Shown: positions 34,440 to 64,000 of the stretch, piece after piece
How the letters are laid out: every line of letters begins with the position of its first letter
Numbering within the stretch: position 1 is the stretch's first letter
Assembly (NCBI GenBank): GCA_038231135.1
Contig: JBBRLX010000001.1
Coordinates: forward strand, 64,001 to 128,000
Length of the DNA stretch: 64,000 bases
Direction of reading: 5' to 3'
Source: Candidatus Eiseniibacteriota bacterium
Lineage (GTDB): Bacteria; Eisenbacteria; RBG-16-71-46
The notes under the pieces: model-generated
Told to the model about the DNA's origin: nothing
Database searches by the model: none
Seen by the model: the letters and a program-made list of their open reading frames with translations, nothing else
Translations under genes and position numbers: made by a program

Positions 34440-34475
34440 CGCCCCGTGGTCGATTCCGCGGGGCGTTTCGCGTTT
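34440..34475 (+). terminator. Putative riboswitch expression-platform terminator
   Basis: CGCCCCGTGG-TCGATT-CCGCGGGGCG followed by TTTCGCGTTT. Confidence 0.55.
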
Positions 34476-34492
34476 CGAAAGGCTGGATCCGA

Positions 34493-35644: not shown

Positions 35645-35645
35645 C

Positions 35646-38181: not shown

Positions 38182-38747
38182 CGCGCGCGCGTGGCCGGCA
38201 CCCCGGCGGATCGCCCGGCGGCCCTCGCGGCGGCGCCCCCGGCGGCCCTCGCGGCGGCGCCCCCGGCGGGCCGGGTGGCGGCCCCGCCCACAACTTCACG
38301 GACCGGGGGCGCGGCGGCGACGACGGCCGCGCCGACACCGGCCGGCGCCGGGCGCGCGAGCTGGCGTTTCGCGTTGCCTACGAATCCGACGTGAACCACG
38401 ATGCCGTCGCCGACGTATGGCAGCGCATCGCGGCGGACGAGCGGCTCACCGACGACCAGCGCGAGCTGGTCGACGACGTCGTCGGGGCGCTGGCGCGGGA
38501 GGGTGGCGTGGACGCACATCTCGAGGAGGCGCTCGAACGCTGGCCGCTCGCCCGGCTGGCCGCGACCGACCGGGCGGTGCTGCGCGCCGCGGTCGCCGAG
38601 CTGGTCGCCCGCGCGGGCATCCCCGCGCCGATCGTGATCGACGAATCGATCGAGATCGCCCGGCGGTTCGGCACCGACGAGTCGGGCCGGTTCGTCAACG
38701 GCGTTCTCGACCGAGTGGCGCGCATGCTGCGCCCGGGCGAGCTGTGA
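38178..38747 (+). CDS. nusB: Transcription antitermination factor NusB with Gly/Pro/Arg-rich N-terminus
   Basis: RRRARELA, DRAVLR, IDESIEIARRFG, FVNGVLD; follows ribH. Confidence 0.92.
   Translation: MTRARGRHPGGSPGGPRGGAPGGPRGGAPGGPGGGPAHNFTDRGRGGDDGRADTGRRRARELAFRVAYESDVNHDAVADVWQRIAADERLTDDQRELVDDVVGALAREGGVDAHLEEALERWPLARLAATDRAVLRAAVAELVARAGIPAPIVIDESIEIARRFGTDESGRFVNGVLDRVARMLRPGEL
38214..38261 (+). repeat. Exact 24-nt tandem duplication (PGGPRGGA x2) in nusB 5' end
   Basis: CCCGGCGGCCCTCGCGGCGGCGCC twice. Confidence 0.9.
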
Positions 38748-39466
38748 AGCCGCACGCGGTGCTGTCGGACATCCACGGCAATCTCGAGGCGCTCGAGGCG
38801 GTGCTCGCCGACATGGACCGCCGCGGCGTCGAGCACATCGCCTGCCTCGGAGACTTCGTCGGCTACGGCGCGGCGCCGAACGAGTGCATGGACCTGCTGC
38901 GGCCGCGCCTCGACGTCGCCGTCGCCGGCAACCACGACCTCGCCGCCTGCGGCCGCATCCGGCTCGGCTACTTCCACAAGGACGCGGCGACCGCCGCGCG
39001 CTGGACCAACAAGAGCCTGACGCCGGAGAACCTGGCCTGGCTCGAGGCGCTGCCGTTCACCTCGGAATGGCAGGGCATGTGGCTCGTGCACTCGACGCCC
39101 TCCGAGCCCGACAGCTGGTCGTACGTGATGGCGGCGGACGAGGCCGGGCTCGAGATGGCGGCGTATACGCAGGCTGTGTGCCTGATCGGACATTCGCACT
39201 ATCCCGGCGCGTTTCGTCGCAGCGGCAACACGGTCACGTATACGCGCGACACGGAGGTGCCGATCGTGCCCGGCGACAAGTATCTCGTGAACGTCGCGAG
39301 CGTCGGCCAGCCGCGCGACGGCGATCCGCGTGCGGGCTACCTGCTCGTCGAACCCGGCGTGCTGCGGCACGTACGGCTCGGCTACGATGTGAACCGGGCG
39401 GCCGCGCGCATCGAATCCGCGGGCCTGCCGTCGATGCTGGCGGAACGCCTGCGCTGGGGGGAGTGA
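38744..39466 (+). CDS. Metallophosphoesterase (calcineurin-like)
   Basis: SDIHGN, LGDFVGYG, GNHD, GHSH, SVGQPRDGDPRA. Confidence 0.93.
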   Translation: MKPHAVLSDIHGNLEALEAVLADMDRRGVEHIACLGDFVGYGAAPNECMDLLRPRLDVAVAGNHDLAACGRIRLGYFHKDAATAARWTNKSLTPENLAWLEALPFTSEWQGMWLVHSTPSEPDSWSYVMAADEAGLEMAAYTQAVCLIGHSHYPGAFRRSGNTVTYTRDTEVPIVPGDKYLVNVASVGQPRDGDPRAGYLLVEPGVLRHVRLGYDVNRAAARIESAGLPSMLAERLRWGE

Positions 39467-40245
39467 GATTGGCGGATCGCGTTTCGACGCTGGAACACTG
39501 GGAATCCTACTGGCGCGGCCATGCGAACCTCGAGGAGACCTACTCCACGGGCGGTCGGCTGGTGCGCGAGGTGCTCGCGGACGGCGACGTCCGCGGCCGC
39601 GTGGTGATGGAGGTCGGCGCCGGTTCGGGCCGCGACATCCTCGAGCTGGCGCGCCACGGCGCGACCGGCATCGTGCTCGACTATTCGCCGGCGTCGCTCG
39701 AGCTGGTGCAGCGGCAGTCGCGGGCGTCGGGCGTGCCGGTGCACCTGATCCGCGCCGACGCGCTGGCGCTGCCGTTCAAGGATGGCGCGATCGACGTGGT
39801 GTTCCACCAGGGCCTGCTCGAGCACTTCCGCGACCCGATGCCGCTGCTGCGCGAGAACGCGCGCGTCACGAGGACCGGCGGACGGGTGATCGTCGACGTG
39901 CCGCAGACCTGGCACCTGTACACCGCGATGAAGCAGTCGCTGATTGCCCTGAACCGCTGGTTCGCGGGCTGGGAGACCCAGTTCACGCCGGCCGAGCTCG
40001 AGCGCTGCGTGCGGGCCGCGGGGCTCGAGGTGAAGCGCACGTACGGCGAGTGGCTGGTGCCGGGCCTCGCCTATCGCGTGACGCGCGAGGTGCTGAAGCG
40101 CGGCGCGGCCGTCACGCTGCCGCTCGAGCCGCGCGGGCCGGTCTGGTGGCAGCGCATGTGGACGGGCGCGCGGGCGCGATTCGGCCACACCCGCGCGGCA
40201 CTCTATACCTGCCACGTGATCGGCACCGTGGGGATCAAGCGTTGA
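39463..40245 (+). CDS. Class I SAM-dependent methyltransferase
   Basis: EVGAGSG, ADALALPF, GLLEHF. Confidence 0.88.
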   Translation: MRLADRVSTLEHWESYWRGHANLEETYSTGGRLVREVLADGDVRGRVVMEVGAGSGRDILELARHGATGIVLDYSPASLELVQRQSRASGVPVHLIRADALALPFKDGAIDVVFHQGLLEHFRDPMPLLRENARVTRTGGRVIVDVPQTWHLYTAMKQSLIALNRWFAGWETQFTPAELERCVRAAGLEVKRTYGEWLVPGLAYRVTREVLKRGAAVTLPLEPRGPVWWQRMWTGARARFGHTRAALYTCHVIGTVGIKR

Positions 40246-41390
40246 GCGCGGCGCCCGATCGCCCGCTGCGAATCGTGGCCGTGAACTTCCGCGATCCCGG
40301 TAATCCCGAGGCCGGCGGGGCCGAGTTGCACCTGGAGGAGATCCTGCTCGAAGCCGTGCGCCGTGGTCACGACGTGACGTGGCTCGCCGCGGGATTCCCG
40401 GGCGGGGCGCCGGACACGGTCCATCGCGGCATCCGGGTGGTGCGCCGCGCCACGTGGTGGAACTTCAACCTGGCGGTGCGCGGCGTGCTGGCGCGCGAGT
40501 TCGCGTCGCCGCCGCCCGATCTCGTGATCGAGGACATCAACAAGGCGCCGTGCTTCACGCCGGGCGCGGTGGCGGCGCCGGTGGCGGTGATCGTGCCCCA
40601 CCTGTTCGGCACCACCGCGTACCAGGAGGCGCCGTGGCCGGTCGCGACCTACGTGCTCGCGCTCGAGTCGCGGATCCCGGCGGCCTACCGGGCATGCGAC
40701 TTCCTCGCGATCTCGGAGAGCACGCGCGACGACCTGATCGCGCGCGGCGTGCCGCCCGCGCGCATCGCGGTGGTCCACTGCGGCCTCGATCACGACACCT
40801 ATCGCGTGAATGGCACGCCCAAGAGCGCCGGCCCCACGATCCTGTACGTGGGACGGCTGCGCCGCTACAAGGGCGTCGACTGGACGATCCGTGTGATGCC
40901 GCGCGTGCTGGCCCGGGTGCCCGGCGCCCGGCTGGTGGTGATCGGCGACGGACCCGACCGGCCGCGGCTCGAGGCGATGCTGGGCCGCAGCGGCGCCGGG
41001 CACGCAGTCGAATTCCTCGGGTTCATCCCCCGCGCCGACAAGGCGCGGTGGATGCGCGCGGCATGGGCGGTGGTGCAGCCGTCGCCCAAGGAGGGCTGGG
41101 GGCTCACGGTCGTCGAGGCGGCCGCCTCGGGCACCGCCGTGATCGCCGCCGACAGTCCGGGCCTGCGCGATTCCGTGCGCCGCGACGAAACCGGACTGCT
41201 GGTGCCGTATGGTGACGACGCGGCGCTCGAGCAGGCGCTGGTGACGGTGCTGACCGACACGCCGCTGCGGGACCGACTGGCCCGTGCCGGCGTCGCGTGG
41301 TCCAGGAACTTCACGTGGCCCGATTGCGCGGCGCGTTCGCTCGACGCGCTGCTCGCGCCGGTCACGGCGCGGCGGGCGGAGGCGGGATGA
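40242..41390 (+). CDS. Glycosyltransferase family 4
   Basis: AGGAE, YVGRLRRYKG, EGWGLTVVEA. Confidence 0.92.
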   Translation: MSAAPDRPLRIVAVNFRDPGNPEAGGAELHLEEILLEAVRRGHDVTWLAAGFPGGAPDTVHRGIRVVRRATWWNFNLAVRGVLAREFASPPPDLVIEDINKAPCFTPGAVAAPVAVIVPHLFGTTAYQEAPWPVATYVLALESRIPAAYRACDFLAISESTRDDLIARGVPPARIAVVHCGLDHDTYRVNGTPKSAGPTILYVGRLRRYKGVDWTIRVMPRVLARVPGARLVVIGDGPDRPRLEAMLGRSGAGHAVEFLGFIPRADKARWMRAAWAVVQPSPKEGWGLTVVEAAASGTAVIAADSPGLRDSVRRDETGLLVPYGDDAALEQALVTVLTDTPLRDRLARAGVAWSRNFTWPDCAARSLDALLAPVTARRAEAG

Positions 41391-42394
41391 ATCTCGAGGA
41401 CGGCCACGCGTATTCGGGCAAGGGCGTATGGGCGCTGATCGCCAAGATCGGGCTCAGCCTCGCGTTGATGGTGTTCCTGTTCCGGCGCATCCCGCTGCAC
41501 GAGGTGCTCGAATCCATTCGCACCGCGGATCGCTCGTGGCTGCTCGCGGCGGTCCTGCTGCTGGTGGCGAGCAACGTGCTGGGCGCCTATCAATGGGAGC
41601 GGCTGCTGCGCGCCGTCGACATCCGCATCCCGTTCTGGAAGGTGTGCGCCTATTACCACGTCGGGCTGTTCTTCAACAATTTCCTGCCCGCAAACATCGG
41701 CGGCGACATCGCGCGGGTGCTCGACGCGTCGCGTCACGGGCCCAACCGCGGGACGGTCGTGTCCACGGTGATCATGGACCGGCTGCTGGGGACGGTGGCG
41801 CTCGCCGGCATGGCGCTGATCATGACGCTGCCCGCGATCAACCGGTTCCACCTCGCGTTCGTGTACCTGGCGCTCGTGGGATTCTTCGCGTTCAGCGTGA
41901 TGCTGGTGTGGGCGATCTTCCATCCCGGGCTGCTGCCCCAGGTGGAGCGGGTGCTCGCCCGGGTCGGATTCCGCTCGCTGGGCCCGCACCTGGACGACCT
42001 GGCGGAGCGGATTCGACATTTCCGTGACCGTCGCGGATTGTTTGCCGGACTGCTCGCCATGGCGATGGTGGTGCAATTGTCGAGGATTTTCGTGCACGTC
42101 CTGGTGGCGCGCGCGCTCGGGCTGGCGATCCCGCTCACCTACTTCCTGCTTTTCGTTCCGCTGCTGGGGGTGATAGTCTCGCTGCCCATCTCGTTGAACG
42201 GCATCGGGGTGCGCGAGGGGGCGGGGGTCGTGCTGTTCGGACTCGTCGGCGTCGGACGCGCACAGGCGTTCTCACTTCAATTCACTACTTATCTGGTGGC
42301 GGTGGCCGTGAGTCTGTTGGGCGGGATGATTTTCCTGGCACGCATTCCCCGCCGTCGCAGAGCCGAACGGCTGGCCGCACGGAGGTCTTCCTGA
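41387..42394 (+). CDS. LPG_synthase_TM (UPF0104) flippase-like membrane protein
   Basis: FFNNFLPANIGGD, MDRLLG, LPISLNGIGVREG. Confidence 0.88.
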   Translation: MNLEDGHAYSGKGVWALIAKIGLSLALMVFLFRRIPLHEVLESIRTADRSWLLAAVLLLVASNVLGAYQWERLLRAVDIRIPFWKVCAYYHVGLFFNNFLPANIGGDIARVLDASRHGPNRGTVVSTVIMDRLLGTVALAGMALIMTLPAINRFHLAFVYLALVGFFAFSVMLVWAIFHPGLLPQVERVLARVGFRSLGPHLDDLAERIRHFRDRRGLFAGLLAMAMVVQLSRIFVHVLVARALGLAIPLTYFLLFVPLLGVIVSLPISLNGIGVREGAGVVLFGLVGVGRAQAFSLQFTTYLVAVAVSLLGGMIFLARIPRRRRAERLAARRSS

Positions 42395-45078
42395 TGGATG
42401 CGGCGCGTCGCGCCACGTATGGCATCGCCCTCCTCGTCTTCCTCATCGCCGCCACCGTCTACCTGATCACGCTCACGCCTACCGTGCCATTCTGGGACGC
42501 CGGCGAATTCATCGCGGTGTCCAAGATCCTCGGCATCCCGCATCCCCCCGGCACGCCGCTGTACGTGATGCTGGGGCGCATCGCCACGCTGATCCCGTGG
42601 GGCACCGGCGTCAGCGCCTTCGCCCGGCGCGTGAACGCGATGTCGGCGCTGCCGTCGGCGCTCGCCGTGATGTTTACGTATCTGTGCACGCTCAAGTTCG
42701 TGCGTCTCGCGCTGCGCGGTCCGGTGACCGAGCCCGCGCCGCGCGCGGGCCGCCCGTCCGACGCCCCGGTCGCAGACCTCGCGCCGCCGGCGGGCCTGCC
42801 GTGGACCGAGATCATCGCGCAGGTCGGCGGCATCGTCGGCGCCCTGATGCTCGCGTTCTCCGACTCGTTCTGGGAGAACTCGATCGAGGCCGAGGTCTAC
42901 CAGATGATGAGCCTCGGCTCGATCCTGGTGTTCTGGCTCGGCCTGCGCTGGTGGGAGGAGCATGACCGCAAGCCCAACGTGAAATACCTGCTGATCGCCA
43001 CCTACGTGCTGTGGCTGAGCATCGGGTTGCACCTCGGCGTCGGCGTGATGGGCCTGCCGCTGGTGGTGCTGATCGCGCTCGTCGACTGGCGCGTGGCGGT
43101 GCTGTTTGCGATGCCGTTCCTGTCGATCCTGCGCGTGGTCGCCGGCCTCGAGCGCATGGCGGGAGCGGTGCTGATCCTGTCGCTCGGCACGTTCGTGGTG
43201 TGGTACTTCCAGCGCAAGATGCCCGGGCCGCTCGTGCTGCTGAGCGCCGTGGGCACCGCGATCGGCTCCTACTACGCATTCACGGACGCCACGTTCACCC
43301 CGACGGCGGCGGTGCTGTCGGCGCTCGGCGTCATCGGACCGCTGGCGTGGCTCGCGCGCACCCGCAGCGAGGGCCGCATCCTGCTGCTCGCCCTGTTCCT
43401 GATGATCGCGGGCTACTCGACGCATCTCTACCTGCCGATCCGCGCCGCGCAGCACCCCGGCGTGAACGAAGGCGCGCCCGACAACTGGGACAAGCTGCGC
43501 GATCTGCTCGAGCGCAAGCAGTACGGCGAGATGAACATGTTCGTGCGCCGGGCGCCGCTGTCGGTCCAGCTCGACAAGGAATTCTGGCGGTACTTCAGCC
43601 GCCAGTGGCCGCTGTTTCCGACCGGCCGGCTGTGGGGTGTGCTGCTGCCGCTCGCGCTCGGCCTCGCGGGGGCGTGGTGGCTCGGGCGCCGGAATCGAAC
43701 ATCGTTCCTCTACACGTTCGTATTCTTCGGGCTCAATACCGCAGGACTCATCCTGTTCCTCAACTTCAGCGATCACGAGGTGCGGGACCGCGACTACTTC
43801 TACCAGAGCGGCTACCACGCGTACGCGATCTTCATCGGCGTGGGCGCGGCGTGGCTGATCCACTGGGTGCGGGACTCGTTCGACGAGGGATCGGCGCGCC
43901 GCTACCTGACCGCGTTCACCGCGCTGCTGATGCTCGCGATGCCGTTCCTGATGATGAAGACGCTGTGGTTCACGCACGACCGCCGCGGCAACTACGTGGC
44001 CCACGACTACGCCTACAACATGCTGGCGCCGCTGGCGCCGAATTCGTTCGTGTTCACGAACGGCGACAACGACACGTTCCCGCTGTGGTACATGCAGCAG
44101 GTCGAGGACTTCCGCCGTGACGTGCGGGTGGTGAACCTGAGCCTGCTGAACACCGACTGGTACATCCGGCAGCTGCGGGACGAGGAGCCGAAGGTGCCGA
44201 TCCAGCTCGACGACCGCACGGTCGACATGCTCGGGGTCGGCGCGATCCGTGACAGCACCGGCAACATCGTCTACACCAGCCGGTTCATGGTGGATCACAT
44301 CATCCGCCAGGACCGCAAGCCCGACGGCACGTGGAAGAAGCAACCGTACTTCGCCGTCACCGTGCCGGAGCACATGGGGCTCGACAAGAACTTCACGCTC
44401 GAGGGCCTGGTCTACCGCGTGAACCCCGAGTCGACCACCGTCCAGATCGACGAGGCGGTGACCCGCCATTCGCTGTACGACGTGTTCATGTACCGCGGGC
44501 TGTTCAAGCCCGACGGCTCATGGGATCCCGGCGTGTTCAAGGACGAGAACGCCGCGACGCTGTCGCGCAACTACGCAGCGGCGCACCTGCAGCTCGCGTT
44601 CCTGTACCGCAAGCGCGGCCAGCTCGATCGCGGGATCGCCGAGATGGAGCGCGTGGCGCGCATGTTCCCGGACTACACCGACGTGATGGTGCCGCTCGGC
44701 AGCTTCTACATGGACAAGGGCGACACCGCGCGCGCGCTGGCGCTGTTCAAAAAGATCTCGGAACGCAATCCGCAGGACGTCGAGGCGCGCTACTACTACG
44801 GCGTGATCCTGGCGTATCGCGGCAACGTGCCCGAGGCGCTGGCGCAGCTCGACCAGGTGATCCGCACCGATCCCACGTACACGATGGCCTACTACGCGGC
44901 CTACTTCACGCTGTCGGAGCGCGGCGACAAGCAGCGCGCCATGGGATACCTCGAGCGGTGGGTCGAGGCGAACCCCAACGACGCGCAGGCGCAACAGTTG
45001 CTCGAGCAGCAGCGCCGCGCCATGGGGCTGGCGCAGCCGCCGGCCGCGATCCGTCCGCCGGTGCCGAACCTGCCCTAG
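42394..45078 (+). CDS. DUF2723/TMEM260-like GT-C glycosyltransferase with C-terminal TPRs
   Basis: FWDAGEFIA..ILGIPHPPGTPLY, EAEVY, RDRDYFY, FTNGDNDTFPLWY; many TM helices; TPR tail. Confidence 0.9.
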   Translation: MDAARRATYGIALLVFLIAATVYLITLTPTVPFWDAGEFIAVSKILGIPHPPGTPLYVMLGRIATLIPWGTGVSAFARRVNAMSALPSALAVMFTYLCTLKFVRLALRGPVTEPAPRAGRPSDAPVADLAPPAGLPWTEIIAQVGGIVGALMLAFSDSFWENSIEAEVYQMMSLGSILVFWLGLRWWEEHDRKPNVKYLLIATYVLWLSIGLHLGVGVMGLPLVVLIALVDWRVAVLFAMPFLSILRVVAGLERMAGAVLILSLGTFVVWYFQRKMPGPLVLLSAVGTAIGSYYAFTDATFTPTAAVLSALGVIGPLAWLARTRSEGRILLLALFLMIAGYSTHLYLPIRAAQHPGVNEGAPDNWDKLRDLLERKQYGEMNMFVRRAPLSVQLDKEFWRYFSRQWPLFPTGRLWGVLLPLALGLAGAWWLGRRNRTSFLYTFVFFGLNTAGLILFLNFSDHEVRDRDYFYQSGYHAYAIFIGVGAAWLIHWVRDSFDEGSARRYLTAFTALLMLAMPFLMMKTLWFTHDRRGNYVAHDYAYNMLAPLAPNSFVFTNGDNDTFPLWYMQQVEDFRRDVRVVNLSLLNTDWYIRQLRDEEPKVPIQLDDRTVDMLGVGAIRDSTGNIVYTSRFMVDHIIRQDRKPDGTWKKQPYFAVTVPEHMGLDKNFTLEGLVYRVNPESTTVQIDEAVTRHSLYDVFMYRGLFKPDGSWDPGVFKDENAATLSRNYAAAHLQLAFLYRKRGQLDRGIAEMERVARMFPDYTDVMVPLGSFYMDKGDTARALALFKKISERNPQDVEARYYYGVILAYRGNVPEALAQLDQVIRTDPTYTMAYYAAYFTLSERGDKQRAMGYLERWVEANPNDAQAQQLLEQQRRAMGLAQPPAAIRPPVPNLP

Positions 45079-45153
45079 GGTTCGGGCACGGGACCACCTT
45101 AGTCGCGGTCGATCACAGGAGCCCGCCCGTCGCGGCGGCTGGAAAGGAACCGG

Positions 45154-48765: not shown

Positions 48766-48775
48766 CGGAGCGGCG

Positions 48776-54896: not shown

Positions 54897-54941
54897 GCGC
54901 GTCCGGCCGCTGAAGCAGGGAATCTTCGGGAGGCGTCGCCG

Positions 54942-57128
54942 ATGTGCGGGATCGCGGGCGTGATGGTGCAGGACGGACGGGTCGATCTCGGCCGGCTGCG
55001 GCGGATGTCGGAGCTGCTGCGGCACCGCGGGCCCGACGACGAGGGCACGGTGCTGATCGACCCCGCGAGCGGCACCGCGCTGCCGCTCGCCGGCGCCGAC
55101 ACTCCGGAGGCGGTGCTCGCGAGCCGGTTCCCGTTCGCGCCCGGGCGGGGCAAGGGTAATCCCGCGAACGCGCAGTTCCGCGTGGGACTCGTCAATCGCC
55201 GGCTCGCGATCGTCGACCTGTCGCCCGCCGGCCACAACCCGCTGTCGGACGCCGACGCCACCGTGTGGATCACCTACAATGGCGAGGTCTACAACCATAT
55301 CGAGCTGCGGGGCGAGCTGGAGCGGCTGGGGCACACGTTCCAGGGTCACACGGACACCGAGGTGGTGCTCGAGGCCTGGAAGGAGTGGGGTCCCGAGTGT
55401 CTGCCGCGGTTCAACGGCATGTTCGCGTTCGCGATCTGGGATGGCCGCCGCCAGGAGCTGTTCTGCGCCCGTGACCGGTTCGGCGTGAAGCCGTTCTACT
55501 ACCAGTGGGATGGCCGCGACTTCGCGTTCGCGTCCGAGCCCAAGGCGCTCGTGCTCACCCAGACCGGCCCGATCCGGCCGCGGCTCGAAGCGGTGCGCGA
55601 TCTGCTGGCGCTCGACTGGGTGGATCACGAGGCCCGGACGTTCTTCGAGGGCGTGTGGCAGCTGCCGGGCGGTCACTACTTCCACCGCACCCGCGATTCG
55701 GTGCGCCTCGAACGCTGGTGGTCGCTCGACCCCCGGCGCCGCACGCACGGCACCGAGGCGGAGCGCGCCGCGGAGTTCGCGCGGCTGTTCACGAGTGCCG
55801 TCGAGCTGCGGCTGCGCGCGGATGTCGAAGTCGGCTCCTGCCTGTCGGGCGGGCTCGATTCCAGCGCGGTCGTCACCACCGCGTCGCGGCTGGCGGGGCG
55901 CCCGCTCCATGCGTTCACCTGCGCCTACGACGAGGGGCCGGCCTACGACGAGCGCGGCTACGTGCAGGTGGTGTGCGACGCCAGCGGCGCGGTGCCCCAC
56001 GTGGTGATGCCGGCGGGCGATGACTTCTGGCCGGTGTTCGACCGGCTGGCGAGCGGGCAGGACGAGCCGACCGCCGGCCCGGGGCTCTACTCCCAGTGGA
56101 AGGTGATGGAGCTCGCGCATCAGGCCGGCCTCAAGGTGCTGCTCGACGGCCAGGGCGGCGACGAGACGCTGGCGGGCTACTGGCGCTACCTGCCGATCCG
56201 GCTGCGGGACCACCTCACCACCGGCCGGTTCGGCGAGTTCGCCGGCCTGTTCGGCCCGGTGGCGGAGCGGCTCGGTGTCACGACCACGCTCGCGCTCACG
56301 ATGGAGCCGTTCCTGCCGCGCGGCCTGGTCGCGCCGCTCAGGCGGCGCTACGGGCAGGGCAAGGACCGCGTGCTCGGCCCGGCGTTGCGCGCGGCCCACC
56401 TCGGGCCGCCGCCGCAGCTCACCCCCGACTCGGGCTTCCCGACCGCGTTGTCGCGGCAGCTCGCGTTCGACACGCTGCAGCGGCTGCTGCCGTCGCTGCT
56501 GCGCTACGAGGACCGCAACAGCATGGCGTTCTCGATCGAGACGCGGTTGCCGTTCCTCGACTACCGGCTCGTGGAGTTCGTGTTCTCGCTCCCCGACGAA
56601 GACAAGCTCGACGGTGCGACGACCAAGGCGATCGAGCGCCGCGCGCTGCAGGACCGCATCCCGAAGCGCGTGCTCGACCGCACCGACAAGATGGGTTTCG
56701 AGACGCCCACCGATCTATGGCTGCGCGGCCGGCACGCCGACGAGGTGCGGCGGCGGCTGCTGCTCACCGGCCCGCTCCAGGAGTGGATCGACGGGGTCGC
56801 GATGCGCGAACAGCTCGAGGACTACCTGGCGGGCCGGCGAGACATCGGGCTCCAGGTCTGGCGCTGGCTGTCGCTCGACGCGTGGATGCGCGAGTACATC
56901 ACCGGGGATCCGCGCGCGGCCGTGCGGGGGTTGCGCACACCGGCGCCGACCGCGCGGCTGCGCACGGTCGGCGCCCCGCGCTACGTGCGCGTGCGCGAGC
57001 TGTCGAGCGGTGCGCCGGGGATCGGCGCCGTCGTGCCGCAGGCCGGGGTACCGGCCGTGGCCGCGGCGCCCGCGGGGATCCGTTCGCAGGGGGCTTCGGC
57101 TCCCGGCCCGTCCGGCCCGCGTTCCTGA
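54942..57128 (+). CDS. asnB: Asparagine synthase-type glutamine amidotransferase (glycan-associated)
   Basis: MCGIAG, HRGPDDEG, NGEVYNH, LSGGLDSS, DGQGGDE, RLPFLDYRL. Confidence 0.92.
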   Translation: MCGIAGVMVQDGRVDLGRLRRMSELLRHRGPDDEGTVLIDPASGTALPLAGADTPEAVLASRFPFAPGRGKGNPANAQFRVGLVNRRLAIVDLSPAGHNPLSDADATVWITYNGEVYNHIELRGELERLGHTFQGHTDTEVVLEAWKEWGPECLPRFNGMFAFAIWDGRRQELFCARDRFGVKPFYYQWDGRDFAFASEPKALVLTQTGPIRPRLEAVRDLLALDWVDHEARTFFEGVWQLPGGHYFHRTRDSVRLERWWSLDPRRRTHGTEAERAAEFARLFTSAVELRLRADVEVGSCLSGGLDSSAVVTTASRLAGRPLHAFTCAYDEGPAYDERGYVQVVCDASGAVPHVVMPAGDDFWPVFDRLASGQDEPTAGPGLYSQWKVMELAHQAGLKVLLDGQGGDETLAGYWRYLPIRLRDHLTTGRFGEFAGLFGPVAERLGVTTTLALTMEPFLPRGLVAPLRRRYGQGKDRVLGPALRAAHLGPPPQLTPDSGFPTALSRQLAFDTLQRLLPSLLRYEDRNSMAFSIETRLPFLDYRLVEFVFSLPDEDKLDGATTKAIERRALQDRIPKRVLDRTDKMGFETPTDLWLRGRHADEVRRRLLLTGPLQEWIDGVAMREQLEDYLAGRRDIGLQVWRWLSLDAWMREYITGDPRAAVRGLRTPAPTARLRTVGAPRYVRVRELSSGAPGIGAVVPQAGVPAVAAAPAGIRSQGASAPGPSGPRS

Positions 57129-57140
57129 GGCACGGCACTC

Positions 57141-58265
57141 GTGGACCTCGTGGTGCTCTCCGAGGTCCGCTGGGGATACTTTCGCACCCGCAAGCAATTC
57201 CTGCTGTCGCGGTTCCCCGAATCGTGGCGGATCTTCTTCGCGCAGCCGCCCGGCGGCGGCAGCGACGATCCCTGGACGCCGCGCCGCGAGGGCAACGTCA
57301 CCTGCTTCACGGTGCCGTTCCTCAAGCCCGGCACCCGGAGTCCGATCTACAACGCGGCGATCGCCACGTCCGCCGGCCGCGCGGCGGTGGAGTGGATCGC
57401 GGCCCGGCAGCTCGGCCACCGGCTCAAGGCTCTGGGAGTCGGGCCGTCGCCGGTGGTGGTGGTGTCCAACATCTACGCCGCGGGCGCGCTTTCGCGGCTG
57501 CGCGCGAACCGTGTATTCTACGATTTCAATGACAGTCCGTTTCAGTTCTCCACGTCGCCGGCCTGGGCCGGGACGTACTGGCAGCGCACCCGCAGTCAGG
57601 TGGACCTGTTCTTCGTGGTGTCCGAGTACTATCGCCGCCAGTTGAGTCGCGAGACCGATCGGCCGCTCGTCCTGATCGGCAACGGCGTGGAGTGGGAGCG
57701 GTTCTCGACCCCCCGGCCGGTGCCCGCGGATCTGAGCGGGCTGCCGCGGCCGCTCATCGGCTATGTGGGGCTGCTGTCTCACTTCCTGGATTTCGGTGCG
57801 CTCGAGGCGCTGCGCGAGGCACGGCGTGGAGGCACACTGGTGCTGATCGGCCCCGGCAGTCCCGCCACCGACGCCGCGGTCGCCGAGTTCGGCCGCAAGG
57901 ACGGCGTGCGGGTGCTCGGGCCCCGTGCCTATGATGACGTGCCGGCCTACATGCAGGCGCTCGACGTCGGCGTGATCCCATTCCGCGCCGCCGATCCCCA
58001 CGTGCAGGGCATCAATCCGAACAAGGTGTACCAGTATCTGGCCGCCGGCGTGCCGGTGGTGACCACGCCGATCCTGGATCTGGCGCCGGCGCCGCCCGCG
58101 CTCCAGCACGCACTCAACGCCGCGTCGATGGCGCTCGCCCTGGGGCGCGCGCTCGACGCGCCGCGTGATCGCGACGCATGCCGCGCGCTCGCCCGGCCGC
58201 ACGACTGGTCGGTGCTCGCCGCCCGCATGGTCCAGGCGATCGAACAGCGGCTCGCCGCCGCCTGA
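57141..58265 (+). CDS. GT-B glycosyltransferase (TuaH-like)
   Basis: RKQFL, NGVEWERF, IGYVG, NPNKVYQYLAAGVPVV. Confidence 0.85.
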   Translation: MDLVVLSEVRWGYFRTRKQFLLSRFPESWRIFFAQPPGGGSDDPWTPRREGNVTCFTVPFLKPGTRSPIYNAAIATSAGRAAVEWIAARQLGHRLKALGVGPSPVVVVSNIYAAGALSRLRANRVFYDFNDSPFQFSTSPAWAGTYWQRTRSQVDLFFVVSEYYRRQLSRETDRPLVLIGNGVEWERFSTPRPVPADLSGLPRPLIGYVGLLSHFLDFGALEALREARRGGTLVLIGPGSPATDAAVAEFGRKDGVRVLGPRAYDDVPAYMQALDVGVIPFRAADPHVQGINPNKVYQYLAAGVPVVTTPILDLAPAPPALQHALNAASMALALGRALDAPRDRDACRALARPHDWSVLAARMVQAIEQRLAAA

Positions 58266-58301
58266 CGCGACGTTCCACCTCCACCCGGGAACCTAGATTC
58301 C

Positions 58302-60773
58302 ATGTCCGAGCGCAGGACCGTGAAACCCGCCCGCAAGCCGATCGACGCCACGCGGCCGCCGGCGCGCGCGGCGGGCTTCACGCTCGACACCCGCTGGGTC
58401 GCGATCGTGTTCGGCCTGCTCGTGGTGCTGTTCTTCCACGACGTGGTCGTCGGCGGCAAGACGTTCGTGTCGCCGGACACCACGGCCCCGGCGGGCTTCG
58501 TGCGCATGGGGGAGCAGGCGCTGTATCACGATCACTATTACCCGCTGTGGAACCCGTATGTGTTCCTCGGCATGCCGTCGTTCGCGAGCGGCGCCTACAA
58601 CCCCCTGATCTATCCGCCCGACTGGCCGCTGGCGCTGGTGCAGAAGGTGCTGCCGTTCCTGCCCGACCTGACGTGGATGCTGCTCTACTACTTCCTCGGC
58701 GGCGTGTTCATGTTCCTGCTGGCGCGGGACTGGGGCGCCCGGCCCGAGGGCGCGCTGCTCGCCGCGGTGGCGTACGTGTTCGCGCCGAACCTGATCGCGG
58801 TGGGGTCGCACGGCCACGGCAGCCAGCTCGTGGATTCGATGTACCTGCCGCTGATGATGTGGCTGGGGTCACGCTGGATGCAGCGCGGGCGGCTCACGGA
58901 TCTGGGCTGGCTCGCGATCGCGGGCGGCTTCCAGCTGCTGCGCGGCCACGTGCAGATCTGCTTCTACACCTGGATGGCGCTCGGGCTCTACACCGTGGCC
59001 GAGCTGATCGCGTCGATCCGCGCCGGTGCCGTGCCGGAGCGGCTCGCGCGGGCGGGCGGCATGCTGGCGGCGGCGCTGCTCGCGTTCGGCATCGCGGGGT
59101 TCTACAACCTGCCGCTGCGCGACTACGCGCAGTACTCCATCCGCGGCGGTACCGACGTGGGCGGTGGCGTGGGACAGGAGTACGCCACCGCGTGGTCGTT
59201 CGCGCTCTATGAGCTGCCGTCGATCGTGGTGCCGGGCTGGGCCGGGTTCGGAGGCCAGACCTACTGGGGCGGCATGCCGTTCACCGACTACCCGAACGCG
59301 TTCGTCGGCATCGTCACGGTGGTGCTCGCGCTGTGCGCGGGGTTCGCGGTGGTGCGGCGGCGCGCGTTCGTGCTGGTGCTCGCCGTGTTCGCGCTGCTCG
59401 TGGCGTTCGGCAAGAACTTCCCGCTCTACGGCGTGCTGTACGGGCATCTGCCGCTGTTCAACAAGTTCCGCATCCCGGTGATGATCGTGCTGCTGTTCCA
59501 GCTGGCGGCGGCGCTGGGGCTCGCGTGGGGGTGGAGCGCCGTGCTCGAGCTCGCGCACGGCGACCGGGCGCGCCGCGAGCGGCTCGCGAAGCTGCTGCTC
59601 GCGATGGCGGCGGTGCTCGCGATCGTGCTGGTCGCGGGCGTGTTCGGGCAGGACCTGTGGCGCAGCGGGTACATCGCGAACGCCATGCGGCTGCGGAACG
59701 TGCCCGGACTCGGCTACACCCCCGAGCTGGGGGCCCAGGCGTACACCGCTTACGTGGGCGACCTCGGCCGCGCGTGCCTGCTCGGGCTGCTCGCGATCGG
59801 CGCCGCGTGGCTGGCGCTGCGCGGGCGACTGGCGCCGCGGGTCGCCAGCCTCGTCGTGCTCGGGCTCCTGATGGTCGAGCTGTGGCCGGTGAGCGGGCGG
59901 CTGATGGCCCCCGTGATCGGCGATCCCGTCCAGCGTAACGCCGAACAGGGCCGCGACGACGTCACCGATTTCCTGGTCCAGGCGGGCCCGCCTGGCACGT
60001 TCCGCGTGCTGCCGGTGGAGGAGTTCCAGAACAACCGGTTCGCGGGCTTCGGCATTGCGTCGGTCGGCGGCTACCATGCGGCCAAGCCGCGCCGCATCCA
60101 GGATTTCATGGACTACGGCGCGAACCGGGAGCTGGTGTTCGATCCCCGCTGGATGCGGCTGCTCAACGTGCGGTTCATCGTCACCCACCAGAAGCTCGAG
60201 CCCGCGCCGCCGTATCTCAAGCTGGTGCACGAGGGCTCGGCGCTCGTGTACGAGAACCTGTCGGCGCTGCCGCGCGCGACACTGGTCGGCAACTACCGCG
60301 TGGTGACGCCGGCGAAGGCGATCCTCGATTCGGTCCGGAACGGATCCAGCGACAGCGCGCTGCTCACGTATCTCGAGCAGGATCCCAAGCTCACGCTCGG
60401 CCCGCTCGCGGGCCCGTCCGCCGCCGTGGTGAGCCGCTACCGCTTGAACGACGTGACGGTGGACGTCGATACGCCGGCGCCCGCGCTGCTGCGGCTCGCC
60501 GACGCGTGGTACCCCGACTGGGTCGCGACGGTCGACGGTCACGCGGCGCCGCTGTACGCCGCCGACTACCTGCTGCGGGCGGTGCCAGTGCCGGCGGGCA
60601 AGCACCAGGTCCGGTTCACGTTCCAATCGAAGGCGGTCGGCGCCGGGCTGTTGGTGTCGATCGCGAGCTGCCTGATCTCGCTCGGCCTGCTGATCGCCGG
60701 TATGGCGTTGCAGCGGCGCCGCGAATCGTCACCGCCGGGCGCCGTCGCGGCGGCCGCCGCACCGGGGGCGTGA
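58302..60773 (+). CDS. YfhO-family GT-C membrane protein
   Basis: PLWNPYVFLGMP, HVQICFY, PLFNKFR, DAWYPDW.ATVDG, VPAGKHQV. Confidence 0.88.
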   Translation: MSERRTVKPARKPIDATRPPARAAGFTLDTRWVAIVFGLLVVLFFHDVVVGGKTFVSPDTTAPAGFVRMGEQALYHDHYYPLWNPYVFLGMPSFASGAYNPLIYPPDWPLALVQKVLPFLPDLTWMLLYYFLGGVFMFLLARDWGARPEGALLAAVAYVFAPNLIAVGSHGHGSQLVDSMYLPLMMWLGSRWMQRGRLTDLGWLAIAGGFQLLRGHVQICFYTWMALGLYTVAELIASIRAGAVPERLARAGGMLAAALLAFGIAGFYNLPLRDYAQYSIRGGTDVGGGVGQEYATAWSFALYELPSIVVPGWAGFGGQTYWGGMPFTDYPNAFVGIVTVVLALCAGFAVVRRRAFVLVLAVFALLVAFGKNFPLYGVLYGHLPLFNKFRIPVMIVLLFQLAAALGLAWGWSAVLELAHGDRARRERLAKLLLAMAAVLAIVLVAGVFGQDLWRSGYIANAMRLRNVPGLGYTPELGAQAYTAYVGDLGRACLLGLLAIGAAWLALRGRLAPRVASLVVLGLLMVELWPVSGRLMAPVIGDPVQRNAEQGRDDVTDFLVQAGPPGTFRVLPVEEFQNNRFAGFGIASVGGYHAAKPRRIQDFMDYGANRELVFDPRWMRLLNVRFIVTHQKLEPAPPYLKLVHEGSALVYENLSALPRATLVGNYRVVTPAKAILDSVRNGSSDSALLTYLEQDPKLTLGPLAGPSAAVVSRYRLNDVTVDVDTPAPALLRLADAWYPDWVATVDGHAAPLYAADYLLRAVPVPAGKHQVRFTFQSKAVGAGLLVSIASCLISLGLLIAGMALQRRRESSPPGAVAAAAAPGA

Positions 60774-60798
60774 GCCCGGCCGGGCCGCGCAACGACAC

Positions 60799-61515
60799 GT
60801 GGAAAAACTCGTCATCGTACCGACCTACAACGAGCGCGACAACATCGAGCCGTTGCTGCGGCGCATCCTGGCGCAGCCGCTCGACCTGCACGTGCTGGTC
60901 GTCGACGACGGTTCGCCGGACGGCACGGCGGCGGTGGTGCGCGAATGGATGACCACGGAGGCGCGCCTCCACCTGATCGAGCGGGCCGGCAAGATGGGAC
61001 TCGGCTCCGCCTACCGCGAGGGCTTCCGTTACGCGCTCGACCACGGCGCCCAGTACATCTTCGAGATGGACGCCGACTTCTCGCACGACCCCGACAGCCT
61101 GGGCGCGTTCCTCGAGCACATCGAGCACGCCGACGTGGTGCTCGGCTCGCGCTACCTGAACGGCGTCACGGTCGTGAACTGGCCGATCCAGCGGCTGATC
61201 CTGTCGTACCTCGCGAACCGCTACACGCGGCTCATCACCGGTCTGCCGGTGAACGACGCCACCGGAGGCTTCAAGTGTTTCCGCCGGCGGGCGCTCGAGG
61301 CGGTGCGGCTCGACAAGGTGAAGTCCGACGGCTACTCGTTCCAGATCGAGATGACGTTCAAGATCTGGCGCAAGGGGTTCCGGATCGTCGAGATCCCGAT
61401 CCTGTTCGTGGATCGCCGGGCCGGGGTGTCCAAGATGAACCGCAAGATCGTGTGGGAGGCGGCCTGGATGGTGTGGCGGCTGCGGTTCAACGACTGGTTC
61501 GGCCAGCTCGAATGA
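60799..61515 (+). CDS. Polyprenol monophosphomannose synthase (DPM1/Ppm1-like GT2)
   Basis: IVPTYNERDN, VDDGSPDGT, GLGSAY, EMDADFSHDP, DATGGF, GYSFQIEM. Confidence 0.92.
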   Translation: MEKLVIVPTYNERDNIEPLLRRILAQPLDLHVLVVDDGSPDGTAAVVREWMTTEARLHLIERAGKMGLGSAYREGFRYALDHGAQYIFEMDADFSHDPDSLGAFLEHIEHADVVLGSRYLNGVTVVNWPIQRLILSYLANRYTRLITGLPVNDATGGFKCFRRRALEAVRLDKVKSDGYSFQIEMTFKIWRKGFRIVEIPILFVDRRAGVSKMNRKIVWEAAWMVWRLRFNDWFGQLE

Positions 61516-61549
61516 CGCAGTCCGGGCGGATCCGGGGTATTCTAGGGGC

Positions 61550-63841
61550 ATGATCGGATCCGTCTCGCGGGTGGCCCGGCCGGGCGTCGCGGCCCTGCTC
61601 CTCGCCGCCCTGTGGGTCACCCCCATGCCCGCCCATGCCAGCGGCGCGTGGACCACCTACCTCCGCGCCTACACCTATGCCGACCTGATCGCGGATTCGA
61701 CCACGGTGTGGTGCGCCACGCTCGAGGGCGGCCTCGTGCAATTCGACCGTGCGACGCACACGTTCACGACCACGGTGCGGGAGCCGGGCGGCATCGCCAG
61801 CAACTCGCTCACCGCGCTCACGTTCGACCGCTCACGGCGGCTGTGGGCCGGCACCCAGGGCGCCGGGCTCAGCTACCTGTCGGCGGATCGCAGCCGGTGG
61901 AACCTGCTCAACGAGTTCGACGGGTTGCCGTCGGACACCGTCAACGCGTTGACGCCGCAGGGTGACACGCTGTGGATCGGCACCACCAAGGGCATCACGC
62001 TGTGGGACGGCCAGCGCGTCCTGGGCTCGCTGCCCGACGGCATCAACGCCTCGCCGTTCGCGAGCAACAACGTCACCGGCATCGTGGTGGCGGGGGACTC
62101 GCTGTATCTCGCGACGCGCGGGGGAGTCTACCGCTCGCTCGAGTCGCAGAACCTCCAGGTGTGGGACACCCTGAACCGCGGGTTGCCGACGCCCGTCGTC
62201 GAGCAGTTCGCCACCGACGGCACCACGATCATGGCGTTCTCGAGCGACACGGCGTGGAAGGCGCCCTACGTGCTGTCGGACACCGGCTGGGTGCGGCGGC
62301 CCACGCCCGCCGTCGCGCGCCGGATCGGCGCCGACCGCAACACGATCTTCGTGATGACCTCGGTCGGAATGTATCGCTGGAACGGCGCGGGGTACGCGCC
62401 GATTCCGGGCTCGCCGGGTTCCGGACCGCTCCCTCAGCAGTGGATCGCCCCGGCGATGGCGCCCGACGGCAAGCTCTATGGGGCCAGCCGCAGCGGCATG
62501 TTCGAGCAACCCGCGGGGGTGTCGCTCTGGACGCTCTACCGGCCGCAGCAACCCCCCGGCAACAACATCACGAACCTCGCGCTCGAGGGTCCACGCCTCT
62601 ATATGACCACCTATAACGAGGGCATCGGCCGCTACGACGGCGTGAACTGGCGCAACTGGCCTCCAGGCTTCTGCCAGCTGCCGGCCTGCAGCCGGGATAC
62701 CTCGTTCGGGACCGCGACGTTCGCGTTCTCGTTGCTGATCGACCGGCGCAGCGCCAAGTGGTTCACCACCTGGGGCGAACCCGGCAACCCGCTGAGGCCG
62801 GGTGCGGTCGAACACATGGTCGACGACACCGATCCCCCGCAGTTCACCTCGGTCCAGGCGTGGTCCGACGGCCTCGACCCGGTGCGCCACTCGTTCGGCA
62901 TCGGGTCCACGCTCGACTCCAGTGGCGGCCACTGGTTCGGCCTCGACAGTCCCGCGCGCGAGGATCAACAGTTCTCGCCGATCGGGCTCGATTACTACGA
63001 CAGCACGGGGACGTTCGTCCGCAACCTCAGCCCGTCGAACACCGGCATATTCGGTCTGCGCACCGGCCGCATCATCGCGCTGACGACGGATGCGCTGGGC
63101 GTGATCTGGATCGGCACGACCGGCCAGGGCGTGCAGCGGCTGGTCTACGACCCGGTACTGAACACGGCCATGTTCGAAACCGTGAGTCCCGACGACAAGA
63201 TCGACGTGCGTGGCATCGTCGCCGTGGGCGACACGGTGTGGGCGCAGAGCACGAACGACGTGCGGGACTACCGGCGCTCGGGCGGCCTCATCGGCGCCTA
63301 TCCCGTGCTCGCCGGGCCCTCCGACATCGCCGGGCACTCGCTCGAGGTCGCGAAGGACGGCACGGTGTGGGCGGCGACCGTGAACGGCGTCCGGGTCTAC
63401 CGGAGCGACGGCACCGTGCTCGCGGACTACACGGAGGCGAACTCGCCGCTCGCGAGCGACGAGGTGCGCGCGATCCGCTCGGATCCCGTGACGGGCGTGC
63501 TGTGGATCGGCACGGCGGCCGGCCTGCACCGCTTCGACCCCCGGTTCGTGCCGGCGCCGCCGCCGTCGGTGGTGCGGCTCGATGCGCGCGTCTATCCCAA
63601 TCCGTCGCGGCTCACCGCACTCGGCGTCGATCTCCGGCTCGCCGGCAACACCTCGGACTATCGCGGCGCGATCTACGATCTCACCGGCCGGCTGGTGCAC
63701 TCGTTCTCGGGTGCCGCGAACGGCGCGCGCATCTGGGATGGTCGCGACCGCGACGGCCGGCGCGTGCAGCCCGGCGTCTACTTCCTCCACGTGACCGCGG
63801 GCGGCCGTTCCACGCTGGTGCGCATCGCGCTCCTGCATTAG
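61550..63841 (+). CDS. Secreted tandem beta-propeller protein with C-terminal T9SS-CTD/FlgD-like Ig domain (PorZ-like)
   Basis: Signal peptide; repeated LWxGT / GLPSDTV / NSPLASDEV propeller motifs; VYPNP...YDLTGRLV...WDGRD..G..V..GVYF. Confidence 0.8.
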   Translation: MIGSVSRVARPGVAALLLAALWVTPMPAHASGAWTTYLRAYTYADLIADSTTVWCATLEGGLVQFDRATHTFTTTVREPGGIASNSLTALTFDRSRRLWAGTQGAGLSYLSADRSRWNLLNEFDGLPSDTVNALTPQGDTLWIGTTKGITLWDGQRVLGSLPDGINASPFASNNVTGIVVAGDSLYLATRGGVYRSLESQNLQVWDTLNRGLPTPVVEQFATDGTTIMAFSSDTAWKAPYVLSDTGWVRRPTPAVARRIGADRNTIFVMTSVGMYRWNGAGYAPIPGSPGSGPLPQQWIAPAMAPDGKLYGASRSGMFEQPAGVSLWTLYRPQQPPGNNITNLALEGPRLYMTTYNEGIGRYDGVNWRNWPPGFCQLPACSRDTSFGTATFAFSLLIDRRSAKWFTTWGEPGNPLRPGAVEHMVDDTDPPQFTSVQAWSDGLDPVRHSFGIGSTLDSSGGHWFGLDSPAREDQQFSPIGLDYYDSTGTFVRNLSPSNTGIFGLRTGRIIALTTDALGVIWIGTTGQGVQRLVYDPVLNTAMFETVSPDDKIDVRGIVAVGDTVWAQSTNDVRDYRRSGGLIGAYPVLAGPSDIAGHSLEVAKDGTVWAATVNGVRVYRSDGTVLADYTEANSPLASDEVRAIRSDPVTGVLWIGTAAGLHRFDPRFVPAPPPSVVRLDARVYPNPSRLTALGVDLRLAGNTSDYRGAIYDLTGRLVHSFSGAANGARIWDGRDRDGRRVQPGVYFLHVTAGGRSTLVRIALLH

Positions 63842-63857
63842 CGGCCCGCGCCCGCGC

Positions 63858-64000
63858 GTGACCGATCACTGCCGGATTCTCGACGAGGCTCCGCCCGCGT
63901 GGCACGAGTTGCTCCACGCGGATCCCGGCGCGGGGCCGGGGCATCGCCCGGGCCTGTGGAGCGCACTCGCCGGCGCCATACCCGGCGGCAGCGTGCGGTT
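63858..64000 (+). CDS. Partial CDS, possibly GNAT (CelD/BcsL or FemAB-like)
   Basis: Open frame from GTG: TDHCRILDEAPPAWHELLHADPGAGPGHRPGLW; W..L....P.A...H.P.W pattern. Confidence 0.45.
   Translation, partial: MTDHCRILDEAPPAWHELLHADPGAGPGHRPGLWSALAGAIPGGSVR

Follow-up and report, generated by a model that had tools for sequence, protein, structure and literature searches.

Gene content and boundaries of the locus

We analysed a stretch of 64,000 nucleotides from a Candidatus Eiseniibacteriota bacterium (assembly GCA_038231135.1, contig JBBRLX010000001.1, positions 64,001 to 128,000), referred to below as the window, which is part of a host genome of 4.09 Mb that is 93% complete. From position 38744 onwards the window holds a large predicted glycosylation operon that includes a homologue of the human enzyme TMEM260, candidate lipid-sugar synthases, flippase-type proteins, glycosyltransferases (GT) and a PorZ-like secreted protein. 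The initial annotation had counted about 20 co-directional genes, and indeed 19 complete genes on the + strand span 38744-63841 while a twentieth starts at 63858; gene calling with our own codon model gave an identical set of 19 frames. Its description of the genes as mostly overlapping applies, with the start codons chosen here, to 10 of the 18 junctions, the largest gap being 75 nt. Past the window the operon extends for about another 4.8 kb, comprising a GNAT gene, two GT4 genes and a fourth candidate glycosyltransferase of the GT-C fold, after which comes mraZ (L001, 859-5784). As a whole it sits between nusB and mraZ, with 4 genes beyond the window end and 23 locus proteins in total. This extension, the PorZ-like last gene, the coupling to the rib-nusB genes and a fusion gene present in relatives had all been missed in the initial annotation.

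The broad enzyme classes listed in that annotation were recovered with Pfam and NCBIfam. Over the curated cut-offs are PF11028, PF03706, PF01943, three GT4 and three GT2 proteins, as well as an epimerase, a GHMP kinase, a nucleotidyltransferase, AsnB, two methyltransferases and a metallophosphoesterase. The finer names fell under their cut-offs, namely ArnC (191 of 529 bits), HddA (290 of 600), HddC (108 of 300) and YfhO (27.3 of 28.5).

The first gene (38744-39466) encodes a conserved calcineurin-like metallophosphoesterase (PF12850, 61.5 bits). It is followed by S-adenosylmethionine-dependent methyltransferase 1 (39469-40245; PF08241, 74 bits), a candidate sugar O-methyltransferase belonging to a widely conserved block, and by GT4 a of the conserved block (40242-41390; PF00534, 126 bits). 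The next gene (41387-42394) encodes a UPF0104/LPG_synthase_TM membrane protein (PF03706, 143 bits; TIGR00374 over cut-off), a candidate flippase for lipid-phosphate sugars. Then come the TMEM260-like (DUF2723) GT-C enzyme with C-terminal tetratricopeptide repeats (TPR; 42394-45078), a candidate initiating protein O-mannosyltransferase, and a nucleoside-diphosphate-sugar epimerase/dehydratase (45154-46110; PF01370, 192 bits). The ArnC/PgfS-like GT2 (46107-47048; PF00535) has two C-terminal membrane helices and is a candidate polyprenol-phosphate-sugar synthase. An HddC-like sugar-1-phosphate nucleotidyltransferase (47045-47740; PF00483) and an HddA-like GHMP sugar kinase (47737-48765; PF00288/PF08544) belong to the variable part of the locus. 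A gmhA-like gene, under cut-off, was found by family search on another contig (C17), a short motif search having found none.

Further downstream are GT4 b of the conserved block (48776-49951; PF13692), a polytopic membrane protein (49948-51639), a soluble GT2 weakly resembling rhamnosyltransferases (51636-52598; PF00535; TIGR01556, 59 bits, under cut-off) and methyltransferase 2 of the variable part (52595-53446; PF13489). A Wzx-type flippase (53439-54896; PF01943, 54 bits, and PF13440, 45 bits, both over cut-off) precedes an AsnB-family amidotransferase (54942-57128; TIGR01536 over cut-off; eps_aminotran_1, 388 bits, under cut-off), a candidate WbpS-like enzyme amidating uronic acids. Both the UPF0104 and the Wzx family of the initial annotation are thus borne out. 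The last part of the operon in the window comprises the TuaH-like GT4 c (57141-58265; PF13692, 44 bits; TuaH model under cut-off), a YfhO-like GT-C protein (58302-60773; PF09586 just under cut-off), which is a candidate glycan ligase or oligosaccharyltransferase, a DPM1-like GT2 lacking a membrane anchor (60799-61515), which is a candidate polyprenol-phosphate-mannose synthase, a secreted, PorZ-like beta-propeller protein bearing a type IX sorting domain (61550-63841; NF052228, TIGR04183) and the start of the GNAT (Acetyltransf_6) gene (63858-64000), which keeps its place in the conserved order.

Catalytic residues of the TMEM260-like enzyme

The TMEM260-like protein scores 141 bits against PF11028, for which the cut-off is 24.2. 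Its residues 1-699 match human TMEM260 (PDB 9rql; CAZy GT117) and nothing else in the PDB (E 3e-17). D35, H50 and D558 align to human D52, H67 and D441, with positions counted along the printed alignment. In the human enzyme each of these three residues is essential and D441 is the catalytic base (bioRxiv 10.64898/2026.03.17.711096). R374 and Y377 match by eye R264 and Y267 of the human REEYG donor loop, a loop that HMMER placed as an insertion, and are their likely equivalents. All five residues are invariant in 36 of 36 homologues, picked from 74 candidates to reduce redundancy. The TPR matches lie at about residues 725-865, and this tail, like a Rossmann-like motif, is shared with the human enzyme. 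The homologues nearest to the locus protein are Candidatus Eisenbacteria records. Bacterial homologues of TMEM260 are mentioned in PMC10214176 as distant ones only. We found no paper proposing the bacterial TMEM260 family for O-glycosylation in Bacteroidota, most subscription journals lying outside the search.

Conservation of the locus and its upstream coupling

A PF11028 match is present in 41 of the 41 genomes searched, including that of the host. Gene order was followed in 10 of the 40 relatives, chosen for their long contigs: 8 other genera of the family, one order-level and one class-level relative. The complete order from nusB to mraZ is kept in all 8 genera and, in part, in both of the others; the order-level relative misses a match to the epimerase, and in the class-level relative (G038) the middle of the locus is exchanged for genes of Wbp type. 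The genes for the TMEM260-, YfhO- and DPM1-like proteins share one operon in 10 of 10 Eisenbacteria sampled. The gene set treated as one unit in the initial annotation is therefore conserved together in relatives.

A wider comparison covered 78 loci around TMEM260-like genes, for which the lineage labels are those of the depositors. Four loci labelled Krumholzibacteria or Latescibacterota (L041, L059, L074, L077) and one labelled Gemmatimonadales (L047) retain the block nusB-methyltransferase-GT4-UPF0104-TMEM260-epimerase-ArnC-like-YfhO-DPM1-like, and in two of these more distant genomes the run continues to the PorZ-like gene. The full block is not kept at the TMEM260 site of L040 and L071, both labelled Latescibacterota. 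At 39 loci labelled Balneolales, Rhodothermota, Bacteroidota or Chlorobi no neighbours of the locus were found, bar one weak GT2 match. Across the relatives and these 78 loci, the locus shows a conserved frame and a variable middle, the latter made of the HddA/C-like pair, the second GT-C candidate, the second methyltransferase, Wzx and AsnB. Tandem duplicates of the TMEM260-like gene are present inside the locus in L008, L037, L046 and L074.

Upstream, a flavin mononucleotide (FMN) riboswitch aptamer (34269-34404, + strand; Rfam RF00050, 112 bits with a gathering score of 66) heads the rib genes; it is also found upstream in 5 of 6 related loci. The conserved flank ribD, ribE, ribBA, ribH and nusB (34568-38747, + strand; Pfam) continues uninterrupted into the glycosylation genes, the junctions being overlapping ones (34269-38747); nusB overlaps the metallophosphoesterase gene by 4 nt. 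Scanning 33500-50000 for promoters and terminators gave nothing above shuffled sequences. Elsewhere in the window are tRNA-Leu (12720-12804), tRNA-Lys (22709-22784), after which the GC content goes down to 0.63 in 22001-24000, and a housekeeping run at 12846-22247 with trigger factor, ClpX, Lon, a class V aminotransferase and adenylosuccinate synthetase.

Sequon bias in exported proteins

Occurrences of D[ST][ALVIMT], the sequon of Bacteroidota O-glycosylation, were compared with the count expected from each protein's own composition. The split into exported and cytoplasmic proteins relied on genes called by us and on signal peptides predicted from hydropathy, a crude classifier since it called cytoplasmic 51 of the 159 genome proteins that carry a tail like that of the PorZ-like protein. 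The sequon occurs 942 times in the 506 predicted exported proteins, versus 653 expected, a ratio of 1.44 (bootstrap 1.31-1.59), and the ratio in the 1261 cytoplasmic proteins is 1.06. Control motifs (E-, N-, swapped and reversed) gave 0.84-0.98 in the host. Among 3730 tripeptides the strongest over-representation is that of DSL (200 versus 64 expected), and the ratio reaches 1.90 in lipoprotein-like proteins. Four other Eisenbacteria, pooled, gave 1.66 (109/65.6) and 19 Bacteroidota genomes 1.38 (191/138.7), while the Proteobacteria control of E. coli and pSymB gave 1.04 (58/55.6). The earliest controls covered 200-400 kb, which was too little (E. coli 35/28, Adhaeribacter 34/34, Fodinibius 21/23). 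Figure 2A of PMC12871550 plots the sequon ratio across bacteria, and Eisenbacteria may already be among them.

Homologues in Bacteroidota and a proposed pathway

The excess of D-S/T-hydrophobic motifs in exported proteins (1.44 versus 1.38) is a likeness to the O-glycosylation systems of Bacteroidota, known from the lfg region of Bacteroides fragilis and from Tannerella forsythia and Porphyromonas gingivalis. Another is the presence of Wzx together with variable glycosyltransferases and modifying enzymes. Among 91 evenly drawn genomes of Bacteroidota, TMEM260-like proteins were found in 91, YfhO-like proteins in 89 and DPM1-like proteins in 90, the last with 47-62% identity. The YfhO query was an Adhaeribacter protein only 22% identical to the YfhO-like protein of the locus, for which reason orthology to the Bacteroidota YfhO is a matter of similarity only. 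These genes are mostly single-copy in Bacteroidota and do not form one operon; TMEM260-YfhO pairs on one contig are at least about 39 kb apart, from coordinates read by eye. Linkage of the DPM1- and TMEM260-like genes at 9-11 kb in 3 of the 91 genomes was rejected as operonic, unrelated genes in mixed orientation lying between them in the 2 cases inspected.

According to PMC12871550, the flippase, transferase and ligase for the Bacteroidota core glycan, Man-Rha-GlcA, which begins with mannose, are undiscovered, and homologues of eukaryotic O-mannosylation would be worth seeking in this phylum. The lfg layout is metG followed by wzx, and lfg contains no known transferase. The locus studied here differs in belonging to another phylum, in following nusB with an internal wzx rather than having the metG-wzx layout, and in uniting GT-C enzymes, lipid-sugar synthases and Wzx in one operon.

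We give an even chance to the explanation that the operon serves O-glycosylation of the Bacteroidota type, in which the TMEM260-like enzyme acts first, and that a second arm contributes to the anchoring of type IX cargo. The initial annotation had spoken of protein or glycolipid decoration; the PorZ-like gene and the sequon bias are the reasons for this narrower wording. In this scheme the DPM1-like enzyme would be the polyprenol-phosphate-mannose synthase and the UPF0104 protein the flippase for its product. In the periplasm, D-S-hydrophobic motifs would then receive their first sugar, at the serine, from the TMEM260-like enzyme. The ArnC-like synthase, the soluble GT4 and GT2 enzymes, the epimerase, the kinase and nucleotidyltransferase, AsnB and the methyltransferases could provide further lipid-linked sugars or an oligosaccharide, which Wzx would flip and which the YfhO-like protein and two weaker GT-C proteins may then add to the protein-bound core. 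The second arm (Wzx, AsnB, the PorZ-like protein, GNAT and GT4s) probably supplies or carries a glycan anchor for type IX cargo. In favour of this explanation are the catalytic residues shared with human TMEM260, the sequon bias, the near-universal presence of the three genes in Bacteroidota and their union in one operon here, and also the conserved frame with its variable middle of Wzx, glycosyltransferases and modifying enzymes, which resembles the model of a core plus outer glycan.

Several points weigh against this pathway. The genes, their order and conservation, the catalytic residues, the fold class of the YfhO-like protein and the sequon bias are observed; every donor, acceptor and reaction is one that we infer. 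The case for mannose as donor depends on remote similarity to a synthase from an archaeon. No residue corresponds exactly to human R355, which falls on Y468 with the invariant R464 and R466 nearby; moreover the human mannose is not extended, and human TMEM260 recognises a long IPT-domain sequon rather than a tripeptide (10.64898/2026.03.17.711096). Paralogues lie outside the locus, namely a second, shorter TMEM260-like gene (G000 C27:4589-6478), a YfhO-like one (G000 C39:549-2846) and seven of the fourth GT-C candidate, a close one being at G000 C28:26918-28654. As to the sequon, its bias is a property of the genome and not of the operon. The excess is confined to serine (DS 1.96, DT 0.97), and the ratio drops to 1.10 when the top 50 of the 506 proteins are left out, so that about a tenth of them carries it. 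Two locus-bearing genomes outside Eisenbacteria gave 45/39.1 (1.15) and 34/43.4 (0.78), that is, no excess in samples of 200 kb, and neither did a first small positive control of Bacteroidota and Balneolales (55/56.5, 0.97). The reversed motif is raised as well (1.23) in the control of 19 Bacteroidota genomes, and in the other Eisenbacteria the cytoplasmic class is also up (1.33).

The YfhO-like protein and the weaker GT-C candidates

The initial annotation had predicted three GT-C enzymes. The DUF2723 protein stands by its match to human TMEM260 and the YfhO-like protein by its modelled fold; the third, named PMT/ArnT-like, is a lead. An AlphaFold model of the YfhO-like protein, made from a 132-sequence alignment, has a predicted local distance difference test score (pLDDT) of 93.5. 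Its top matches range from Z 20.9 to 18.7: STT3 (Z 20.9, root-mean-square deviation (rmsd) 4.9, 456 aligned), AftD (Z 20.8, rmsd 5.3, 573 aligned), AftA (Z 19.6), Pmt4 (19.3), Pmt2 and PglB (18.7). GT-C or GT-C-like folds account for each of the 20 chains scoring Z 8 or higher and for the rows listed as far as Z 7.6, and Foldseek agrees with the GT-C matches. According to the model, the protein has a GT-C fold, and not that of Wzy/WaaL or a transporter; the model settles the fold class and not the acceptor. The PF09586 match covers the C-terminal stretch only, precomputed annotation giving this family for the protein and most of its close homologues, and a profile of 108 close homologues gave no meaningful match to PDB sequences.

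For the protein encoded at 49948-51639, the PMT match is under cut-off (16.2 of 22.7 bits), neighbours in the ESM Atlas at 0.99 carry PMT_2 in 11-20% of members, and D39 after the first helix is conserved in an 18-sequence alignment. The fourth candidate, past the window, has no Pfam match, and its ESM Atlas neighbours lean to PMT_2 at minority shares. For both proteins a GT-C identity is a weak lead from sequence.

The roles of the two main GT-C enzymes may be swapped: the YfhO-like protein would be an oligosaccharyltransferase transferring a lipid-linked glycan in a single step onto the sequon, with other clients or the addition of a later sugar left to the TMEM260-like enzyme. We regard this as rather unlikely. 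It agrees with the model, in which STT3 ties with AftD, and with a weak likeness of the ArnC-like enzyme to archaeal AglJ. A recent preprint, on the grounds of HHpred, distribution and essentiality, predicts that YfhO is the oligosaccharyltransferase of Bacteroidota (bioRxiv 10.64898/2026.07.27.740950), which also counts against a start by the TMEM260-like enzyme. On the other hand the model is matched as well by AftA, AftD and ArnT, whose acceptors are glycans or lipids, as by the protein-modifying enzymes. YfhO is, moreover, absent from P. gingivalis according to the same preprint, and this species has an O-glycoproteome (PMC8729774). The distribution of TMEM260-like proteins (91/91) and YfhO-like proteins (89/91) also goes against the swap, though by a small difference.

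The PorZ-like gene and a proposed type IX arm

The best NCBIfam match of the PorZ-like protein is NF052228 (PorZ), at 101 bits versus a cut-off of 260; the type IX sorting domain at its C-terminal end is over cut-off (TIGR04183, 26.7 versus 23 bits). The genome also encodes PorU (491 bits for a cut-off of 420), a protein matching the PorV/PorQ family model (182/90) and SprA (537/200), the separate PorV and PorQ equivalogs being under cut-off. PorU adjoins the PorV-family gene, and these genes, with SprA and two more C25 peptidases, lie on contigs C30, C5, C3 and C2 (L217, L219, L224, L225). PorM/GldM and PorN/GldN were unmatched in the 93% complete genome, and the control genomes gave no match to them either. 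Possibly this is a type IX-like system with a different motor. We found no paper on type IX secretion in Eisenbacteria, again with most subscription journals outside the search.

The comparison of interest here is the attachment of type IX cargo in P. gingivalis by PorU, PorV, PorQ and PorZ, with its Wbp/Vim linker of anionic lipopolysaccharide (A-LPS). There, wbpS (asnB) follows porS (wzx), and the acyltransferase VimA acylates the linking sugar (PMC7468200). WbaP initiates the linker, and the proposed route relies on WbaP, Wzy and WaaL, with no GT-C of the locus families named (PMC13086638). In our locus the wzx-asnB pair, the PorZ-like gene and GNAT recall this system, as do PorU, the PorV-family protein and SprA in the genome. 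A VimA identity of the GNAT protein found no support: as it matches no NCBIfam family at E 1e-6, it is not of the FemAB family that VimA matches. Of the linker genes just asnB and wzx are in the host locus, the Wbp/Vim genes and WbaP being absent from it. The class-level relative G038 has in its locus oxidoreductase, DegT and hexapeptide genes of Wbp type together with a GT2-WbaP fusion. The wzx-asnB pair, the PorZ-like and GNAT genes and these genes of relatives would fit an anchor arm.

One may go further and suppose that the operon mainly makes an A-LPS-like glycolipid anchor onto which the sortase PorU fastens type IX cargo, the GT-C enzymes acting on the glycolipid and the sequon bias being served by other genes in the genome. 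The PorZ-like gene speaks for it, being in the locus of 10 of 10 genomes and of two more distant ones, and so do the genome-wide type IX components with 159 tail-bearing proteins, the porS-wbpS-like pair together with the fact that VimA is an acyltransferase, and the Wbp-type genes and GT2-WbaP fusion of the class-level relative. Still, we judge this improbable, about as much as the swap of roles, since the P. gingivalis route names no such GT-C, the host locus is without the WbaP fusion and the Wbp genes, the GNAT is not VimA-like and the PorZ score is under cut-off. In addition, exported proteins lacking the type IX tail have a higher sequon excess (1.62) than those with it (1.10). A pathway started by the TMEM260-like enzyme, transfer by the YfhO-like protein and an anchor glycolipid can coexist.

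Candidate lipid-sugar synthases and flippases, and the initiator

For the DPM1-like GT2, the best PDB match is dolichol monophosphate mannose synthase 5mlz (E 1.6e-30). ArnC and PgfS are the top NCBIfam matches of the other synthase, both under cut-off. The UPF0104 protein, with 8 hydrophobic segments by hydropathy scan, is a candidate flippase; no GtrA-type flippase was matched in the locus. GtrABC, ArnCEFT, CsbB/GtcA/YfhO and the PgfS/M1/E/M2 proteins of Streptococcus are three-component systems working with lipid-phosphate sugars, in which, as here, polyprenol-phosphate-sugar synthases, candidate flippases and GT-C enzymes adjoin. The difference is that two synthases, up to four GT-C proteins and a Wzx arm are combined here in one core operon. 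YfhO of Firmicutes glycosylates lipoteichoic acid, which counts for an analogous reading. That the operon consists of such modules adding side sugars to lipopolysaccharide, capsule or membrane lipids, with no protein acceptor, is very unlikely: all three gene types are in the locus, such systems are common in bacterial glycans (PMC11127046) and the genome has LpxC and separate Wzy/Wzz/WbaP clusters, but this would leave unexplained a TPR-bearing TMEM260-like enzyme with an acceptor-activating aspartate, the sequon bias and the fixed position in the core chromosome across distant lineages.

No clear Wzy, Wzz or initiating WbaP/WecA had been recognised in the initial annotation. This was confirmed for the 19 complete proteins and extends to all 23 locus proteins, in which no such domain was found (Pfam and NCBIfam for 19, Pfam beyond the window). 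Four PF02397 genes lie on other contigs, and matches to PF04932 (Wzy/WaaL) and Wzz are also elsewhere in the genome. A standard Wzx/Wzy O-antigen cluster was rejected for this reason. A cluster at G000 C6:87262-96630 holds Wzz-like, WecA-like and Wzy/WaaL-like genes, of which just PF04932 came from a family search; it also holds a GT2 resembling the GT2 half of the GT2-WbaP fusion that the host locus is without.

This fusion, a GT2 joined to a WbaP-like phosphoglycosyl transferase, is flanked by the DPM1-like and PorZ-like genes; it is present in G038 and G043, where PF02397 is over cut-off, and, with weaker matches, in G025 and G042. It has the same position in L041, L059 and L077. Coordinates of the fusion in relatives are L011:12457-14526, L013:4131-6224, L135:15427-17544 and L146:1632-3845. 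Searching with it gave matches in 6 of 16 genomes outside the family, in 2 of 24 within it (weak) and none in the host genome. Loss of the fusion in this family is one possibility; others are an initiator encoded away from the locus, or assembly on a lipid sugar of the monophosphate type. The preference of the initial annotation for lipid-phosphate-sugar chemistry over an O-antigen cluster is thus upheld as far as the latter is concerned; because a WbaP-type initiator is in the locus of several relatives, undecaprenyl-diphosphate chemistry may still be at work.

Implications

A broader proposal, which we offer tentatively and with more doubt than belief, is that the operon is an intact record of an ancestral envelope glycosylation pathway of the FCB (Fibrobacteres-Chlorobi-Bacteroidetes) group. 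It would name the missing Bacteroidota enzymes: DUF2723 as initiating O-mannosyltransferase, the DPM1-like protein as donor synthase, YfhO as outer-glycan ligase and UPF0104 as core flippase. Protein O-glycosylation and the anchoring of type IX cargo would both draw on a single set of lipid-linked sugars, by a stepwise periplasmic route like that of eukaryotes rather than by en-bloc transfer. Bacteroidota are a main group of gut bacteria, in which the enzymes starting and finishing O-glycosylation are unidentified (PMC12871550). If the proposed pathway is true, it would indicate the enzymes that the known Bacteroidota pathway has lacked for over 15 years. The operon groups three near-universal but scattered Bacteroidota genes in a sister lineage with the same sequon bias, and this narrows down the candidates for tests in tractable strains. 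The range of the pathway, and of type IX-like anchoring, would moreover come to include an uncultured phylum, and TMEM260, a disease enzyme in humans, would gain a bacterial counterpart with a defined job.

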